NCBI GenBank assembly: GCA_903885965.1
Contig: CAISKQ010000032.1
Location: 1 to 59,938 of the forward strand
DNA from: an uncultured bacterium
GTDB lineage: Bacteria; Patescibacteriota; Minisyncoccia; Moranbacterales; GWC2-37-73
Direction: 5' to 3'
Length of the DNA: 59,938 nucleotides
Within the stretch, counting starts at the first letter, position 1, and every line of letters begins with the position of its first letter. The position numbers and the translations under genes were made by a program. The notes below the pieces were generated by a model. It saw nothing but the letters and a program-made list of their open reading frames with translations. It was not told the DNA's origin and made no database searches. Of this stretch, positions 6,614 to 40,640 are shown in pieces.

Positions 6614-7585
6614 CTACACTTCACTAATCACATCAAAGCCCTTGAAACTTCCCGTAATTGAAAGACCAATAACATTTATAGCAATTTTCTTTTGCTTGAT
6701 TTGCAACGCTGTTTCATTAAGCGTTGCGCCAGATCCAATCGCATCATCAATCAGTAGGATGTTCTCGAAACTTCCCCGCTCATCAACGATTATGGTATTT
6801 CTGGCATTTTCAACACGATCACTCAATTTCGTGAGTGTTTTTTGTGGCACCATGATCTCTGACTTAACCTTAACAATGGAAACTCTGCGAAGCTTTTCTT
6901 GCAAATTCTTTTCCAGCTCTTTCATGAATTGAACTTCTCTTTTAACTGTTGGAGGAATGAAGCCGATTCCATCAATTTTATACCTCTCAATAATTTCATC
7001 AATTCTAGATTTAACATCATTCGATAATTCACGCATCAGATTTTTGCTTTGACTTTGTTTGGCATACAAAAGCAACTGACCAAGTTTTGTTTTTCCGAAT
7101 CTTTCAATGCTATAAAAATCCAAATAAAAAACTTTATCCAAGCCAATCTCATCAAAGGTTGTCTTGAATTTTTCCATTCCGTCAAGCAAGCCTCTTTTTT
7201 TGAAAGAGTTATATTTTTTCAAAGTTTTCACATATTCAGGTGCGACCTTTTCAACATTTTGTTTTGTTCTCAAACACCAATACTGAAAACCGTCAAGACC
7301 CTCTCTGCGTTGTCCATTTGGCGCAATAAAAAGAAAATTTTCTTCAATTATCTTTTTGACATCCTTTTCTATTTCAAAAGGACCCCCTTTCGAAATTTCT
7401 TGCTCTTTTAGCAAATAGAAAACAACTGGTGGCTTGCCAATTTTGGTAATTTCATCTTGTGCCAAAAGATTGCTAAGCTGCTTGGAAACAGCCACCCTGC
7501 TGATATGCAAAAAATCAACCAGCTCATTCACGGAAGCTTGCTGATTTTCGCCTAGATACTTCTTTATTTTTTCTGAAGTCTTCAT
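6614..7585 (-). CDS. Winged-HTH fused to a ComF-like phosphoribosyltransferase (PRTase)
   Basis: 323 aa. The N-terminal wHTH is VNELVDFLHISRVAVSKQLSNLL. The C-terminal PRPP-binding loop is ILLIDDAIGSGATLNETA, preceded by a ComF-like VPQKTL...R..N segment. Confidence 0.65.
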   Translation of the reverse strand: MKTSEKIKKYLGENQQASVNELVDFLHISRVAVSKQLSNLLAQDEITKIGKPPVVFYLLKEQEISKGGPFEIEKDVKKIIEENFLFIAPNGQRREGLDGFQYWCLRTKQNVEKVAPEYVKTLKKYNSFKKRGLLDGMEKFKTTFDEIGLDKVFYLDFYSIERFGKTKLGQLLLYAKQSQSKNLMRELSNDVKSRIDEIIERYKIDGIGFIPPTVKREVQFMKELEKNLQEKLRRVSIVKVKSEIMVPQKTLTKLSDRVENARNTIIVDERGSFENILLIDDAIGSGATLNETALQIKQKKIAINVIGLSITGSFKGFDVISEV

Positions 7586-7761
7586 ATTGAAAAAGTTTAT
7601 AGTTAACAGTTAACTGTAAACTATTATACAATACTGATAATATTTGTCAATATTTGGTCAATATGGCATTTTTATGGCTATACATAGGCATTTTCAAATC
7701 TCGCATTTCGCACTTTGAACTTTATTATATTTCCGGAGGACCGTCCTCCGGGAAATTCTTT

Positions 7762-34873: not shown

Positions 34874-34957
34874 ATTGATAACTTTAACACGTTTTATTGA
34901 ATAAAAAAAGGGCTCTGAGTTGTCTTTTTTGAAGTTTTGCGTTACGATAATCTAACT

Positions 34958-36298
34958 ATGCAAATCAAAACCCTATCTCAATTTGAAGTCTACCTCAAAA
35001 CTCGCATTCCGACGCGGGAGGCTTTGTTTGTAGGCGATTTGGGGCTGCAAAGAGCCAAGTATTTCATGCGCTTATTAAGTAACCCTCAAAATAAGCTCAA
35101 AGTTATCCACATAGCTGGAACTTCCGGCAAAGGTTCAACAGCCTATTTGACCAGCCACCTTTTGCAAAGCCAGGGTTTTCGAGTCGGACTTTCCATTTCC
35201 CCTCACATTTTTGACATCCGGGAGCGCATCCAAATCAACAACCAATTGCCAAGCGAAAAATTGATTTTGAAATATTTCAATCAAATTTTGCCAATTGTCA
35301 AAAAAATGGAAACTTGTCGCTATGGCGCCCCGACTTATTTTGAAATTATCGTGGGACTAGCCTACTATATTTTCGCTCAAGAAAAAATGGACTACGGGGT
35401 CATTGAAACAGGGCTCGGTGGCAAACTCGATGGCACCAACACAGTTGCCAGCAAAGATAAAATTTGCCTGCTCACCAAAATCGGACTTGATCACACGGAA
35501 ATTTTGGGAAACACAATTGCTGAAATTACCAAGGAAAAAGTTGGGATAATCGGAAAACAAAACATAGTAATCAGTAACTGGCAATCAGTAACCAGCAATC
35601 AAATAATTATTGACAGATGCAAGGAAAAAAATGCGAATTTATATTTCATAAAACCTCAAAAAAATTATTCACTCATTTCTTCAAATAAAACAGCGACGAT
35701 TCTTGATTTTAATTTCGCCAAAGACAATTTCAAAAATATTAAGCTTGGACTTCTTGGCCAGCATCAAGTTGAAAATTGCTCCTTGGCGCTAGCTTGCCTT
35801 TCGGTCTTGGCTAGTCGTGATAAATTCGCAATTGACGAATCAAAAATGCGCAGCGCTTTGCAAAAAATTTCCATCCCAGGTCGCATGGAAATTCGCAAGA
35901 TTGGCAAGACAAATTTGATCATTGATGGCGCTCACAACCCTCAGAAGATGACTGCTTTTATTGCCAGTCTTAAAATCATTTTTCCAAAACAAAATTTTGA
36001 TTTTATCCTAGCATTCAGAAAAGGCAAGGATTTCAGAAATATACTGACGGAAATCCTGCCGATTGCAGATCATGTCTTTCTAACTGATTTTTCTCTAAGC
36101 AACCAAGAAAATAGTTCCAGTTCAACTGACAGCAAAGAAATTGCATCCTATTTCAAAAAAGAAAAATTTTCAAATTTCTCCATCATCGAAAACAATCAAA
36201 AAGAAATTCTCACTACCATCAAAAAATGCAAGAAATCAATCGTGCTAACAGGTTCACTCTATCTCATTGGTTCGGTTTACGGGTACATGCAAAAGTAA
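34958..36298 (+). CDS. folC: Folylpolyglutamate synthase / Mur-ligase family
   Basis: AGTSGKGST P-loop and Mur-ligase central and C-terminal domains. I took the ATG at 34958 as the start. Confidence 0.85.
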   Translation: MQIKTLSQFEVYLKTRIPTREALFVGDLGLQRAKYFMRLLSNPQNKLKVIHIAGTSGKGSTAYLTSHLLQSQGFRVGLSISPHIFDIRERIQINNQLPSEKLILKYFNQILPIVKKMETCRYGAPTYFEIIVGLAYYIFAQEKMDYGVIETGLGGKLDGTNTVASKDKICLLTKIGLDHTEILGNTIAEITKEKVGIIGKQNIVISNWQSVTSNQIIIDRCKEKNANLYFIKPQKNYSLISSNKTATILDFNFAKDNFKNIKLGLLGQHQVENCSLALACLSVLASRDKFAIDESKMRSALQKISIPGRMEIRKIGKTNLIIDGAHNPQKMTAFIASLKIIFPKQNFDFILAFRKGKDFRNILTEILPIADHVFLTDFSLSNQENSSSSTDSKEIASYFKKEKFSNFSIIENNQKEILTTIKKCKKSIVLTGSLYLIGSVYGYMQK

Positions 36299-36316
36299 AA
36301 TCTCTAGTATTATTAA

Positions 36317-36469
36317 TTGTGTCATCCTGAGCGTAGCTGATCCGCCTAGGGCGGAGAAGCGAAGTCGAAGGATCTGAGCCCAGATTTCCTCGCCTCGATT
36401 CGATAAGATATTTTCTCATCGCAGTCGAAGCGGGTCGATTCCGCTCCGCTTCACTCGAAATGACACAAT
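36317..36469. repeat. GC-rich MITE-like element with inverted termini (ATTGTGTCAT ... ATGACACAAT)
   Basis: A GC-rich island in AT-rich intergenic DNA. The 10-nt terminal inverted repeat is perfect. The internal motif GATCCGCCTAGGGCGGAG recurs inverted at 58259-58276. Confidence 0.55.
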
Positions 36470-36501
36470 ACTACCAAATTAAATTAATTGCACATTAAAA
36501 C

Positions 36502-36532
36502 AAAAAGACATTTCGCATAGAAATGTCTTTTT
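36502..36532. terminator. Bidirectional intrinsic terminator hairpin
   Basis: AAAAAGACATTTC-GCATA-GAAATGTCTTTTT, a 13-bp stem flanked by A and T runs. It sits directly 3' of the tRNA-like gene. Confidence 0.7.
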
Positions 36533-36537
36533 GTTAT

Positions 36538-36677
36538 AGGCCCGGTTGGATTCGAACCAACTATCATGATCCTCAAACTAAGAAAACGTTGACTGACCAA
36601 AATTTTTGAAACAATAACAAGTCAAGATTTTCCAGCATCACCCGTGAGAAGTGCTTTTGCCATTAAGCTACGGACCT
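36538..36677 (-). tRNA. tRNA-like gene with an intervening insert of ~64-68 nt; isotype unresolved
   Basis: On the minus strand, AGGTCCG-TA-GCTT-AATGGCAA-AAGC-A forms the acceptor and D arm. GTTGG-TTCGAAT-CCAAC-CGGGCCT forms the T arm and acceptor. The 7-bp acceptor pairing has one G-U. Ninety nt lie between the D and T arms. Confidence 0.55.
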
Positions 36678-36709
36678 GCTTAGTATTACACTGCTAGGCG
36701 AAGCTTATT

Positions 36710-36898
36710 TCATTTTAATATTGCTGCTTTAAATTTTTCCACGGCTTCTTTTTCTTCAATCACTTCAGCTTTGTATAATTTCTGCAAAAGCAGTGGCACG
36801 CCACAATTTTCACATTTTCCCCAAGCACAAAATCCTTGCTTTTGATGATGTTTTCGGCAAATTGAAATTTCCTTTTGAAGTGTTTCTTTGGAAATCAT
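36710..36898 (-). CDS. Small Cys-containing hypothetical protein
   Basis: 62 aa with C..HH...C.WGKCENCG. It abuts the DUF3850 gene. Confidence 0.4.
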   Translation of the reverse strand: MISKETLQKEISICRKHHQKQGFCAWGKCENCGVPLLLQKLYKAEVIEEKEAVEKFKAAILK

Positions 36899-37170: not shown

Positions 37171-37638
37171 TTAAATTATTTTTAACTCTTTAAGCCACTC
37201 GCACCAAACTTTTTCCAAACCAGGATTCTTTTTCCAGTCATCCTCGGAAATTTTTCCAGTCTCATATTCCTCAGTTCTTTCAGCCAATTTCTTTATTTCA
37301 CCAACATCAAACCATCCAATCTGTTTCGTTTCAGAAAGACTACGATTAAGTTCGCCCTCAACCTCAACTTCAAAAATTTGCCAGAAGTGCCAAGTGCCGT
37401 CAATTCTGCGACAAGGATTTTCCTTGCGACCCTCGCCCAACAGTTTCAAGGACTTTGCCACCAGTCCAACTTCTTCAAATAATTCGATTTTGGCCATTTC
37501 TTCAAAGCTTTCATTTCCATCCAAATGTCCCGCGGGTGGCGCAAAGGCAAAGGGAAATTTTGCCCGCTCAATCAAAAGCAGTTCACCATCGCGCCAAACC
37601 AACATACCCACGCTTTTATGATCACAGATTTTGTTCAT
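37171..37638 (-). CDS. NUDIX hydrolase
   Basis: Nudix box GHLDGNESFEEMAKIELFEEVGL. Confidence 0.8.
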   Translation of the reverse strand: MNKICDHKSVGMLVWRDGELLLIERAKFPFAFAPPAGHLDGNESFEEMAKIELFEEVGLVAKSLKLLGEGRKENPCRRIDGTWHFWQIFEVEVEGELNRSLSETKQIGWFDVGEIKKLAERTEEYETGKISEDDWKKNPGLEKVWCEWLKELKII

Positions 37639-37643
37639 ATAGT

Positions 37644-38057
37644 TTAAATTGTTTCAAGAAATTCTTCTATATTTTCATATCTTTCATTAAAAATAAGATA
37701 AAGTGTTTCTGGCTTTTCCGGTTTTCCAATTAAAATAAGTGGCTTTCCATAACCAAAAGCAACTCCTGCTTCTATATGAGCTGAGGTTCCTGCAGGTAAT
37801 AATAATATAACTTTTTTCGCATTTTTTAATCCCTCTAAATCATTTTTGAAAATTTCTTTAAAATATTCATTATTATAAAAATCATCAACTGCCTCCAAAA
37901 CCCTCATTTGATCTTCCGGATGAGCATCTGGATTGTTTTGATCAGCAGGAATAGCACAAAAATTATAACAAGTTTTTCCTTTTTCAGATAGCCTTTTTAA
38001 TAATAATTCACACTGTTCTTTATTTCTAAATCTTGAAATTATTGTGTAATCAGTCAT
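37644..38057 (-). CDS. Nucleoside 2-deoxyribosyltransferase-like protein
   Basis: 137 aa. KVILLLPAGTSAHIEAGVAFGYGKPLILIG shows the conserved Glu in a Rossmann-like context. Confidence 0.55.
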   Translation of the reverse strand: MTDYTIISRFRNKEQCELLLKRLSEKGKTCYNFCAIPADQNNPDAHPEDQMRVLEAVDDFYNNEYFKEIFKNDLEGLKNAKKVILLLPAGTSAHIEAGVAFGYGKPLILIGKPEKPETLYLIFNERYENIEEFLETI

Positions 38058-38062
38058 ATTTT

Positions 38063-38479
38063 TTATTTTACCTTAGTTAAATCCCCATCCAAAATCACAT
38101 CATACATCGCTTTAATCTCATCGACATAAGAAAGTTCTTCTGGCGCCGGATTATATAAAAATATTTTTTTGTTCAAGACATGCGCAAATCCCATTTCCAA
38201 AAAAGAATTTCCACCAATATATCCAGCCACTCCATTCAAATCACAATTAACCACCAAGATTGCATCACTGGCTTTGATTTTTTTATAATAATCTCGAATT
38301 AAATCATTTTCAATTTTATTCTTCACTGATTCGTTATGGATGTGGTCTGAGGTTTTCGTCTTTGCATATTCCTCGGTATGCCGTGGCAAAACAACGTCAT
38401 GCCCAAATTTTTGAAGTTCATCCCTGACCTCGATCATTTTTGCTGAAACTTTCATGCTGCCACAAATAACAATTTTCAT
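38063..38479 (-). CDS. Nucleoside 2-deoxyribosyltransferase-like protein (second, divergent copy)
   Basis: 138 aa with MKIVICGSM... and SDAILVVN...GYIGGNSFLEMGFAHVLNKKIFL. Confidence 0.55.
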   Translation of the reverse strand: MKIVICGSMKVSAKMIEVRDELQKFGHDVVLPRHTEEYAKTKTSDHIHNESVKNKIENDLIRDYYKKIKASDAILVVNCDLNGVAGYIGGNSFLEMGFAHVLNKKIFLYNPAPEELSYVDEIKAMYDVILDGDLTKVK

Positions 38480-38598
38480 ATTTTCTTTCCTACGAATTAC
38501 CTGCCTACCGGCGGGCAGGCGAATTTATACAAATGTACGAATGTACAAAAACCTTCAAATAAATTACCTAGCGAACTTCGACTTTCCACCCAAAATAA

Positions 38599-39147
38599 TT
38601 AGTTTTGCCTATTTACTTTTAGAGCTTTAAATAAAAGTTCGTATTCATGCTCTCGAGGAATAAAATCCTGTCCATCAGCAGTTACTATTTCTTGCAACTT
38701 TGCCAGTGAAATAAATTTAACTTCCTCAATTTCTTCGACTTGTAAGGCTAACTCAGTCAAATCAAAATCTTTTTGGGCCAAATAAACTTGAGCAAAATCG
38801 TTGTTGATAAAATTTCCATCATTTTGAACGTCAGCTTTTTTGATGTCAAAAAGAAATTGAAAATCCTTTCCTTTCAAGATTAAATTGGTTTCTTCTTGAG
38901 CTTCTCGAATCAAGGCCTGCGACGGGGTTTCTCCGCTCAGCACATGACCACCAAAATACACATCCCAAAGTCCAGGATAATATTTCTTATTCCTAGCCCG
39001 ACGATGAACAAGAATTTCACCTTGTAAATTCATCAGCAAAACCTGTGCAGTCAAATGCCAAACTCCGTGACTGTGAACTTCCTCACGGCTAGCCGATTTT
39101 CCCGTCGCCTTGCCATCTTCATCCAAAACATCAAGATATTCTTGCAT
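38599..39147 (-). CDS. NUDIX hydrolase (IDI-like subgroup)
   Basis: Nudix box GGHVLSGETPSQALIREAQEETNL. I set the start at MQEYLDVLDEDG so it does not overlap lysS. Confidence 0.8.
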   Translation of the reverse strand: MQEYLDVLDEDGKATGKSASREEVHSHGVWHLTAQVLLMNLQGEILVHRRARNKKYYPGLWDVYFGGHVLSGETPSQALIREAQEETNLILKGKDFQFLFDIKKADVQNDGNFINNDFAQVYLAQKDFDLTELALQVEEIEEVKFISLAKLQEIVTADGQDFIPREHEYELLFKALKVNRQN

Positions 39148-39188
39148 AAAAAAATAATTGTTGTATATTATATTTTGAATATTGTCTA

Positions 39189-40640
39189 TTATTCCTTTTC
39201 TTTCATCGGCGGGAAAATCACGCATTCGCGGATTGATTTATTCATCAGGAAAGAAAAGAAACGCTCACTGAGTCCAAAGCCAAAAGCTGGAGGCATGCCA
39301 TATTCCAGAGCTTGCACGAAATCTTCGTCAATCATTTGCGCTTCCGCATCACCTGCTTCTCGTAGGGCCATTTGATCCTCAAAGCGCGCCCTTTGGTCAA
39401 TCGGGTCATTTAGCTCAGCAAAAGCATTGCAAAGCTCGGCTGTACCAGCTACGATTTGAAAACGCAAAACCTTATTTGGATTAGCTGGATCCTTTTTAGC
39501 CAATGGCGAAACTTCAATTGGATGTCCAATCAAAAAGCATGGCTGAATCATTTTGAGACGCACAGTTTTCTTGTAGACCGTATCAATCATTCTACCTTTG
39601 CCATATGATTTTTCATATTTAATTCCAAGCTCGTCGGCCTTTTTCATTAAATCTGCAACTGAAACTTCATCAGAAAGATTGATGCCAGTTTCTTTTTTGA
39701 AGGCATCAAAATAATCAACCACCGGAAATTGATTTTCCCAGTCGATTGTGGATTCTTCATATTGAGTAACCAATCCTCCTGTAACGTTTTTCACAACTTC
39801 CCTTGCCATTTTTTCAGAAAATTCCATGCCCTTTTTCAAATCCCAATAAGCTGCATAAAATTCCATGTGATCAAATTCTTGCAGATGATGTCGGTCGATT
39901 CCTTCATTGCGAAAAACTCTACCGATTTCAAAAACTTTTTCATAGCCGCCAACCAAAAGACGCTTGAGTGAAAGCTCCAGCGAAATTCGCATAAAGAAAT
40001 CCTGGTCAAGCGCATTGTGATGGGTAATGAAGGGCTCCGCATCCGCACCACCTGGCGTATGTTCAAAAACTGGATTTTGAACTTCTAAAAATCCATCGCT
40101 TGCTAAAAAGTTCCGAATGGTCTGCCAAAAAACATTTTTCTTGCGAAAAAGTTCTCTTGTGTCAGGATTTATCATTAAATCCAAATAGCGCTGACGCAAG
40201 AGCTGCTCCTCATCCTTAATCCCAAAATGTTCAGTTGGAATTGGACGAATATTTTTGCTTAGCATTTTCCAATCAGTAACTTTCAGTGATTTTTCTTCCG
40301 TCTTGGTCAAAAACAATTGACCCGTCACTTGCACAAAATCTCCTAAATCAGCGTTCTTAGTGAAAAGTCTAAACAATTCCTCATTCATGTTTCCCTTATT
40401 CAAAAAAAGCTGCATTTTCCCTGACTCATCTTCAATATTTGCAAATGCACTTCCTCCCATCGGCCGCAGTGACCTGACCCGACCAACCAAGGTTATTTTT
40501 TCTTCTCCGATTTCTTCAAACTTTTCCAAAGCCTGAGCATTGCTAAAATCCCGCTCAGCTTTTTCAGGATAAGCCTCCATACCAAATTCTTTGATGTTTT
40601 CCAGTTTATCAAGTTTTACTTGTAATATATCTTCTCTCAT
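39189..40640 (-). CDS. lysS: Lysine--tRNA ligase, class II
   Basis: 483 aa with an OB-fold N-terminus, FRNEGIDRHHLQEFDHMEFY and class II motifs. Confidence 0.95.
   Translation of the reverse strand: MREDILQVKLDKLENIKEFGMEAYPEKAERDFSNAQALEKFEEIGEEKITLVGRVRSLRPMGGSAFANIEDESGKMQLFLNKGNMNEELFRLFTKNADLGDFVQVTGQLFLTKTEEKSLKVTDWKMLSKNIRPIPTEHFGIKDEEQLLRQRYLDLMINPDTRELFRKKNVFWQTIRNFLASDGFLEVQNPVFEHTPGGADAEPFITHHNALDQDFFMRISLELSLKRLLVGGYEKVFEIGRVFRNEGIDRHHLQEFDHMEFYAAYWDLKKGMEFSEKMAREVVKNVTGGLVTQYEESTIDWENQFPVVDYFDAFKKETGINLSDEVSVADLMKKADELGIKYEKSYGKGRMIDTVYKKTVRLKMIQPCFLIGHPIEVSPLAKKDPANPNKVLRFQIVAGTAELCNAFAELNDPIDQRARFEDQMALREAGDAEAQMIDEDFVQALEYGMPPAFGFGLSERFFSFLMNKSIRECVIFPPMKEKE

Follow-up and report, generated by a model that had tools for sequence, protein, structure and literature searches.

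Few bacterial RNAs are known to use the tRNA shape for purposes beyond decoding, among them transfer-messenger RNA (tmRNA, or SsrA), YrlA and some tRNA-like regulators, and each known tRNA-shaped RNA that does not decode has informed how tRNA enzymes or the ribosome recognise their substrates. We examined a window of 59,938 nucleotides (the whole of contig CAISKQ010000032.1 as analysed here), in which a minus-strand element at 36537-36677 has the acceptor stem, D arm and T arm of a tRNA but carries a much longer structure in place of the anticodon stem-loop. We consider it probable that the product of this locus is a stable small RNA of ~140 nt, transcribed on its own, that derives from a tRNA, has its anticodon stem-loop replaced by a hairpin, and neither decodes nor is spliced. 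The window comes from the Candidate Phyla Radiation (CPR), in which non-coding RNAs are almost unexplored.

The architecture of the element is identical to one that has been built in the laboratory. In engineered tRNA scaffolds the acceptor, D and T arms are retained, and the anticodon stem-loop gives way to a structured insert with a closing helix; such RNAs are processed and protected in Escherichia coli (PMC3753655). The scaffold, however, is a laboratory construct, while the element is a natural, conserved gene with an insert under selection. In YrlA of Mycobacterium smegmatis, RNase P cuts the tRNA-like module and CCA is added to it, and the tRNA-like part, which is recognised by tRNA enzymes, has been proposed to give stability (PMC4201824). 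The two RNAs differ in their ends, which in YrlA belong to the stem that binds Ro60 and substitutes for the anticodon stem, but here form the acceptor. Other traits of YrlA were not found: there is no Ro60 (TROVE) gene in the neighbourhood tables, no GNCGAAN0-1G motif outside the T loop of the element, and no Rfam match.

In tmRNA, as in this RNA, the acceptor and T arm frame a long irregular helix at the place of the anticodon arm (helix 2), and a further likeness is that the D stem is absent in one lineage of this RNA. Unlike tmRNA, which has ~350 nt, the RNA has only 130-175 nt, with no G3-U70 pair, no tag reading frame and no pseudoknots, and four of its six main lineages have a true D arm; no tmRNA was found by the tmRNA mode of ARAGORN or by the Rfam tmRNA models. 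Intron-containing tRNA genes likewise have extra sequence in the region of the anticodon arm, and archaeal introns can be of similar size and may carry functional RNA, as those of archaeal tRNA-Trp genes can. Here, however, the predicted junctions lie in a helix, and the exons are without a credible anticodon loop.

With canonical tRNA genes (RF00005), the element shares a 7-bp acceptor stem, U8, a D arm with GG, the T loop UUCGAAU and its arrangement as a monocistronic gene with a terminator. The 5' strand of the acceptor, AGGUCCG (36671..36677), pairs with 36538-36544, including one G-U pair, and is followed by UA. The Rfam tRNA alignment places the D arm GCUU AAUGGCAA AAGC at 36653..36668 (GCTT AATGGCAA AAGC at 36668-36653 in the DNA letters of the minus strand) and the T arm GUUGG UUCGAAU CCAAC at 36545..36561; the 3' strand of the acceptor, CGGGCCU, and a discriminator A are read from the sequence at 36537..36544, and as in other genes of this type CCA is not encoded after the discriminator at the window locus. 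The letters of these arms, from AGGTCCG at 36677-36671 through CGGGCCT ending at 36538, are those described in an earlier first-pass annotation of this DNA. That annotation had also called the distance between the D and T arms far too long, as it is, although 91 nt separate the D and T stems by our count and not the 90 it gave.

The long arm begins with a base helix in the place of the anticodon stem, in which UUCUC (36646..36650) pairs with GAGGA (36570..36574). An asymmetric internal loop follows, with ACGGGUGAU unpaired on the 5' side (36637..36645) and facing UU alone (36575-36576); among homologues its 5' strand, A(C)GGGUGAN, is 8-9 nt long and the opposite strand has 2 nt (UU or UC), and the GGGUGA within the loop (36638-36643) is invariant in 8/8 homologues. 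Beyond the loop, the RNAalifold consensus forms a long irregular hairpin (36577..36636) composed of helix Pa (GCU/AGU, 3 bp), helix Pb (GGAAAAU/GUUUUCU), whose 7 bp are interrupted by an internal loop in the diverged copies, a 1x1 mismatch, helix Pc (UUGACU/AGUCAA), which hardly varies in sequence and was already recognised in the first-pass annotation as a helix internal to the insert, and an A/U-rich apex of variable length (36595-36619 in the window), which is 16-27 nt in the family and unconserved. An 8-nt linker, UCAUGAUA (36562..36569), stands in the place of the variable loop. Across the family the insert is 53-71 nt, and 69-82 nt replace the 17-nt anticodon stem-loop of a canonical tRNA, and no 7-nt loop with U33 and a purine at position 37 is found.

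The element has the boundaries of a gene of its own. In the alignment with flanks and the locus sequences, a -35-like box, TGAAATA (36706..36712, minus strand), is invariant in the six closer homologues and is also seen in the two more diverged ones (L136 and L138; homologues are named by locus labels). In the window this box overlaps the stop codon of an open reading frame (ORF) of 62 amino acids (aa), but L009 and L138 have it too, with no ORF ending at that point. A second, extended -10-like box, TGTAATACT (TGTAnTAT), lies at 36682..36690; T-G-T-A-n-T-A is invariant in the flank alignment, and the same box reads TGTAATAAA in L136 and TGTATTATT in L138. The end of this box is 4 nt upstream of where the RNA begins, which makes A36677 or a neighbouring base the probable start of transcription, and we regard the two boxes as a putative promoter. 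The -10 reading fits the occurrence of TATAA-like words, and not of Shine-Dalgarno motifs, upstream of the window genes. A strong terminator had been noted earlier and is present: AUAACAAAAAGACAUUUC, a loop, GAAAUGUCUUUUUGUU and a U run (36490..36538), with arms of 19 nt each (36496-36514 and 36520-36538) that are 95% complementary and start at the last acceptor base. All homologues have this terminator, with the stem kept and the loop varying. Conservation sets in at the TGAAATA and TGTAnTAT boxes and ceases beyond the terminator, and the flanks outside this region are unalignable.

Two observations on expression signals in this genome stand apart from the RNA itself. The words GGAGG, AGGTG and GGTGA were found in the 19 nt before ATG in 0/57 ORFs of at least 120 aa, the commonest words there being ATAAA and TATAA, which suggests translation free of Shine-Dalgarno sequences, possibly from leaderless mRNAs. 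The hairpin of the terminator is flanked by A-rich and U-rich sequence on either side and sits between the RNA gene and the convergent folC gene; it is probably bidirectional and also serves folC.

We assembled eight distinct homologue sequences, all from contigs of Candidatus Moranbacteria (CPR), whose FolC proteins have 61-95% identity to the FolC of the window. A pattern scan of species-representative genomes gave L001, its one true match, along with three false positives (adjacent tRNAs). Contigs encoding FolC homologues gave L005, L009/L010, L008 and L132/L133, and a pattern scan of metagenomes gave L060 and L088, the two true homologues among 120 loci listed; this pattern was too loose, as genuine tRNAs and tmRNAs often have the T arm GTTGGTTCGAATCCAAC, and the family size from that scan is a lower bound. 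The contigs found via the 62-aa neighbour protein gave L138 and L136/L137, which are clearly more diverged (73.8 and 46.3 bits, respectively, with covariance model R1). In viral contigs, the scan returned three chance matches and 0 homologues. The first-pass annotation had proposed to align orthologous loci and see whether the insert comes and goes: insert and frame occur together in the eight homologues, and it is the whole element that is missing in some close relatives. Specifically, the syntenic spot is empty in L006/L007, L011 and L134/L135, with no match elsewhere in their DNA examined, and thus the RNA gene is dispensable at this genomic spot. No convincing parent tRNA was found among the 378 tRNAs of homologue loci that we compared.

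The structure of the arm is shown only by comparative data; the folding energy of the single sequence is ordinary (z = -0.73). A helix GUGAU/AUCAU in the single-sequence minimum free energy fold was rejected, since it is not conserved in L001 or L005. From a curated alignment of six sequences, RNAalifold predicted a cloverleaf with a long irregular hairpin as its anticodon arm. We built a covariance model on this structure and counted pairs on the model-fitted alignment of the six sequences; 96.8% of the cells are paired, compared to 33-57% when the partners are slid by 1-3 columns, and five pairs are altered on both sides. In the long hairpin (36577..36636) alone, 97.9% of cells are paired, and three pairs are changed on both sides. 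The observed covariation score was reached by 2/500 shuffles. These counts lean in favour of the structure to which the alignment was fitted, and the sequences are few and related.

When L136 and L138 were added to the alignment by hand, compensatory changes were present in every helix. In the acceptor, the homologues have A-U, C-G or U-G at pair 1 and U-G, C-G or U-A at pair 4. The D stem has the compensatory version GCUC/GAGC in L005 and L138, and the T stem, in which pair 2 goes from U-A to C-G and pair 4 from G-C to A-U, has the versions GCUGG/CCAGC in L138 and GUUAG/CUAAC in L136. Similarly, in the arm, the base helix is paired in 8/8 copies, with pair 1 U-A in six of them and C-G in L136 and L138; pair 3 of Pa is U-A, U-G, G-U or G-C, compensatory changes occur at pairs 1, 2 and 7 of Pb, and pair 5 of Pc is C-G, U-A or U-G. 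The G-U pairs fit the minus strand only, and the antisense covariance model scores 15-21 bits versus 132-165. Mean pairwise identity among the eight copies is 0.88 for the acceptor and T arm, 0.84 for the base helix and internal loop, 0.83 for Pa and Pc, and 0.63 for Pb, falling to 0.46 for the 8-nt linker and 0.26 for the position-26 nucleotides and discriminator. Thus, the core of the insert (0.83-0.84) and the tRNA frame (0.88) are similarly constrained.

While the arm is conserved, the frame varies at places that would be fixed in a decoder. Some lineages do without the D arm: it is lost in three copies (L008:2483-2613, L060:1579-1706 and L132:5443-5570), which have the A/U-rich 16-mer AUUUUAAUAAAAUUUU in its place and a T loop of UUUGAUU instead of UUCGAAU. 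C56 is lost in these copies together with its partner G19, so that both sides of the G19-C56 elbow contact are gone together, and Rfam does not recognise a tRNA in L008, L060 or L132. In L136 (1535-1708, identical to L137:1475-1648), the D stem is retained despite a structured insertion of ~45 nt in the D loop, CCAGCCUCGACUCACGGAGACAACUGUUUGUCGACGCUAGGCGG, and the tRNA frame thus bears two expansions. Further differences from a canonical tRNA are two nucleotides at position 26, the 8-nt linker, a discriminator that is not fixed (A, G or U), a pair 1-72 that is A-U, C-G or U-G among homologues, and the lack of a constant anticodon or identity across orthologues. All of the frame variants retain the promoter boxes, arm, T stem, acceptor and terminator. 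The family shows a tRNA gene turning into the carrier of a different structured domain, with sister lineages that shed or expand the D arm, and it gives a rare view of a new RNA gene arising from a tRNA.

Standard annotation misses this RNA or would flag it as a pseudo-tRNA or an intron-containing tRNA. The only call of ARAGORN in its default mode was a tRNA-Lys at 55511-55584, and a whole-window Rfam scan with gathering filters reported this tRNA-Lys alone. With permissive filters, RF00005 matched the element at 36537-36677 on the minus strand, with 38.7 bits against a gathering score of 29 (E-value 6e-7 for the 301 nt searched and 1.2e-4 for the whole window). This match goes far beyond chance and bears out the earlier view of the locus as tRNA-like. 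It spans model positions 1-71, but positions 27-43 are skipped and 82 nt stand for these 17 anticodon-arm positions. The Rfam tRNA model gave 38.6-42.9 bits in the window, L001, L005, L009 and L138, skipping the anticodon arm every time, and had no match in L008, L060 and L136. The earlier failure to find a clean anticodon arm was thus repeated here, with the arm skipped by cmscan, no call from default ARAGORN and U37 in the best virtual loop. No intron or ribozyme family of Rfam matched the window element at E-values up to 10, tRNA was the sole Rfam family to match it, and our search of the literature on tRNA introns and tRNA-like RNAs in CPR, Patescibacteria and Moranbacteria found no such RNA described. 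The RNA is of a known kind, a tRNA-like non-coding RNA, but the family itself, which comprises eight sequences from one candidate phylum, is new. Its practical value is a covariance model for annotators.

The data show the anatomy of the RNA, its conservation, covariation and strand, the gene boundaries and the lack of a usable anticodon loop; how the RNA is expressed and processed, and how it might work, we infer from them. The gene would descend from a tRNA gene that retained its acceptor stem, its T arm and mostly its D arm, with an irregular hairpin of ~80 nt substituting for the anticodon stem-loop. The module of acceptor and T arm would be a handle for maturation and stability, used for cleavage by RNase P where a 5' leader exists, for 3' trimming, for CCA addition and for exonuclease resistance; we propose this role by analogy, since engineered tRNA scaffolds and the tRNA-like module of YrlA behave in this way. 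A leader of ~13-15 nt lies between box and acceptor in L138, and 5' processing would be needed there. The long arm would be the working part, binding a protein or another RNA through the exposed GGGUGA loop, a candidate binding site, and the invariant UUGACU/AGUCAA helix. [quoted passage not shown]

Several points weigh against a stable, unspliced, non-decoding RNA. The family is small (eight distinct sequences, partly close kin) and the covariation statistics are modest, and we infer transcription, the ends of the RNA and CCA addition. GGGUGA matches no known motif to which it could be assigned. GA is invariant on both strands (GGGUGA, GAGRR), but a kink-turn would need an 8-nt loop, with a bulge of 7-8 nt where the canonical motif has 3 nt beside tandem sheared G-A pairs, and its pairing would compete with two pairs of the base helix and shift helix Pa by one; as a kink-turn or box C/D motif, GUGAUGC...UUGA is non-canonical. 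Nor is GGGUGA likely to mimic a Shine-Dalgarno sequence, given that 0/57 window ORFs have GGAGG or GGTGA upstream. The full 7-bp acceptor and the T loop are conserved somewhat beyond the need of a mere stability handle, which would allow for a function of the tRNA-like end as such. Finally, the 3' strand of the base helix is preceded by seven bases that read Y-U-R/C-G-U-U-Y in 7/8 copies, and their likeness to a Thr anticodon loop leaves room, on sequence alone, for a spliced tRNA.

If the locus were such a spliced tRNA, it would be a tRNA-Thr(NGU) gene with a conserved intron of 53-66 nt where the anticodon loop begins on its 5' side, removed in some non-group-I manner, and the insert would be conserved because the intron RNA has a function or because splicing requires its structure; archaeal tRNA-Trp introns would be the precedent for the former. 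Indeed, ARAGORN in intron mode calls a tRNA-Thr(agt) in the window with a 64-nt intron after position 31, which is exactly the model previously proposed, with 64 nt removed and a TTCTC/GAGGA stem. It also calls Thr in L005, L009 and, once the D-loop insertion is taken out, L136. The sequences spliced in silico fold as cloverleaves, in which GU at 35-36 is invariant and position 34 is variable (A, G or C). However, U37 is present in all copies and C33 in L138, and the in silico product still has two nucleotides at position 26 and an 8-nt variable loop. Moreover, '34' covaries with arm column 44 (U-A, U-G, G-C), as expected of a helix pair and not of a free wobble base, and the predicted 3' junction is inside the covarying arm helices (Pa, Pb). 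The calls are also unstable, being Thr (agt, ggt or cgt), Lys ttt (L001 and L138), Val cac (L136) or, in the D-arm-less copies L008 and L060, none.

The lineages themselves behave in ways that do not suit a spliced decoder. The D arm is lost or disrupted in two lineages that retain the 'intron', the discriminator and pair 1-72 are variable, and the gene is missing at its site in close relatives. The insert also lacks the marks of known introns. It is not a group I intron, as the first-pass annotation had judged: it is too short (53-71 nt versus ~200 or more), the predicted intron ends in C without a terminal G, the 5' exon ends in C, and there is no U-G pair at the 5' splice site; neither group I nor group II signatures nor an Rfam intron match were found. 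The suggestion of an archaeal-type intron fared less well. A loose scan for bulge-helix-bulge motifs gave 5-10 matches per sequence where shuffles gave 5.3, and no match at the borders of the insert is conserved, while the 3' splice site would fall inside a covarying helix. No splicing endonuclease or ligase gene was found in the loci examined, which are contig fragments, and we know of no bacterial splicing route for an intron of this kind. Taken together, we consider a spliced tRNA-Thr unlikely.

We assign the same low likelihood to a tRNA-like RNA with a functional acceptor end, which would be CCA-tailed and aminoacylated and act as a mini tmRNA-like ribosome factor or as an aminoacyl donor (e.g. 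for cell wall or lipid), with the arm acting like helix 2 of tmRNA. The 7-bp acceptor, T stem and T loop are kept by compensatory change throughout the family, the D-arm-less copies recall the tRNA-like domain of tmRNA, and in the window clade the gene is beside a cell-wall cluster (murG, ftsW, mur ligases). But the neighbours differ in L136 and L138, pair 3-70 is G-C in 8/8 copies, leaving no G3-U70, and a discriminator that is A, G or U means that there is no constant identity set. In addition, the searches for tmRNA were negative and the arm has no conserved reading frame. The small ORF in the insert of the window (AUG...UGA, 21 codons) has ACG for its AUG in L001 and a stop after 10 codons in L005; we reject it for these reasons and because changes in the insert preserve RNA pairs and not codons.

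A cis-acting role is very unlikely. Under this explanation, the element would be a 3' element of the upstream operon of lysS and nucleotide-metabolism genes, with a tRNA-like RNase P site that sets the 3' end of the mRNA. The element does mostly lie behind the final gene of that operon and point the same way, but promoter-like boxes are directly upstream of it in all copies, the conserved arm would be left without a role, and in L138 the RNA is on the strand opposite the operon, with its own boxes and terminator still present.

The two remaining explanations, both raised in the first-pass annotation, we regard as highly improbable. A tRNA pseudogene decaying after disablement by an insertion would account for the lack of a usable anticodon arm and for the decay-like loss of the D arm in one lineage, but not for boxes, terminator, acceptor, T stem and insert helices that are all kept with compensatory substitutions even though the flanks no longer align, nor for an insert conserved as much as the frame. 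That the insert of ~65 nt is a small mobile element (MITE-like, i.e. resembling a miniature inverted-repeat transposable element, or homing) that landed in a tRNA gene would fit with the activity of such elements in this genome, as a separate MITE-like insertion lies 70 nt downstream (36316-36469); however, the insert has no second copy in the window or in ~1 Mb of homologue loci, it has no terminal repeats or target duplication (its sole inverted repeats are the arm's own helices), and all eight diverged homologues carry it, with covarying helices, at one and the same position.

For a stable tRNA-derived RNA with a working arm, the scientific value hinges on the partner of the invariant GGGUGA loop, and one candidate is suggested by neighbourhood. 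A Cys-rich protein of 62-64 aa with the motif C-x9-CAWGKCENC (36710-36898 on the minus strand in the window; also L001:2258-2713 and L134:4261-4416) is encoded within 1.5 kb of the RNA in 8/8 lineages; in L001 it forms a fusion with the DUF3850/ASCH protein. In relatives that lack the RNA, this protein is missing or truncated by an insertion sequence, as in L134, where the truncated gene is beside an insertion sequence (rve/HTH_Tnp_1). These are few independent events, and the association of protein and RNA may be synteny only. The protein has no significant match in Pfam or NCBIfam, and its AlphaFold model is poor (predicted local distance difference test score of 57.5).

The window itself is cellular DNA of ~37% G+C with ftsW and trmD among its genes, and its host lineage is Candidatus Moranbacteria (Moraniibacteriota) based on the names attached to the FolC homologues. 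A FolC-type ligase gene (34937-36298, plus strand) is convergent on the element. Upstream of it, on the minus strand, are lysS (39189-40640), several NUDIX genes, deoxyribosyltransferase-like genes and the genes for the DUF3850/ASCH protein and the 62-aa Cys-rich protein; the neighbour genes of L136 and L138 differ from those of the window clade. Elsewhere in the window, 7535-7622 on the plus strand has a weak match to the eukaryotic C/D-box snoRNA family sn1502 (31.4 bits versus a gathering score of 60, E-value 0.009), which is almost certainly due to chance.

Two features of the surroundings vary between close relatives. The lysS operon (37171-40640 on the minus strand, and the neighbourhoods of L001 and L138) holds a shifting set of nucleotide house-cleaning genes, with 2-4 NUDIX, deoxyribosyltransferase-like, Maf, CYTH, HD and NadD-like members, that differs from one close relative to another. 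The spacer between folC and the RNA gene carries, only in the copy of the window, the G+C-rich insertion of ~154 nt at 36316-36469. It is single copy in the window and has 25-nt imperfect inverted repeats with perfect ends (ATTGTGTCAT ... ATGACACAAT), and from these features it looks MITE-like.

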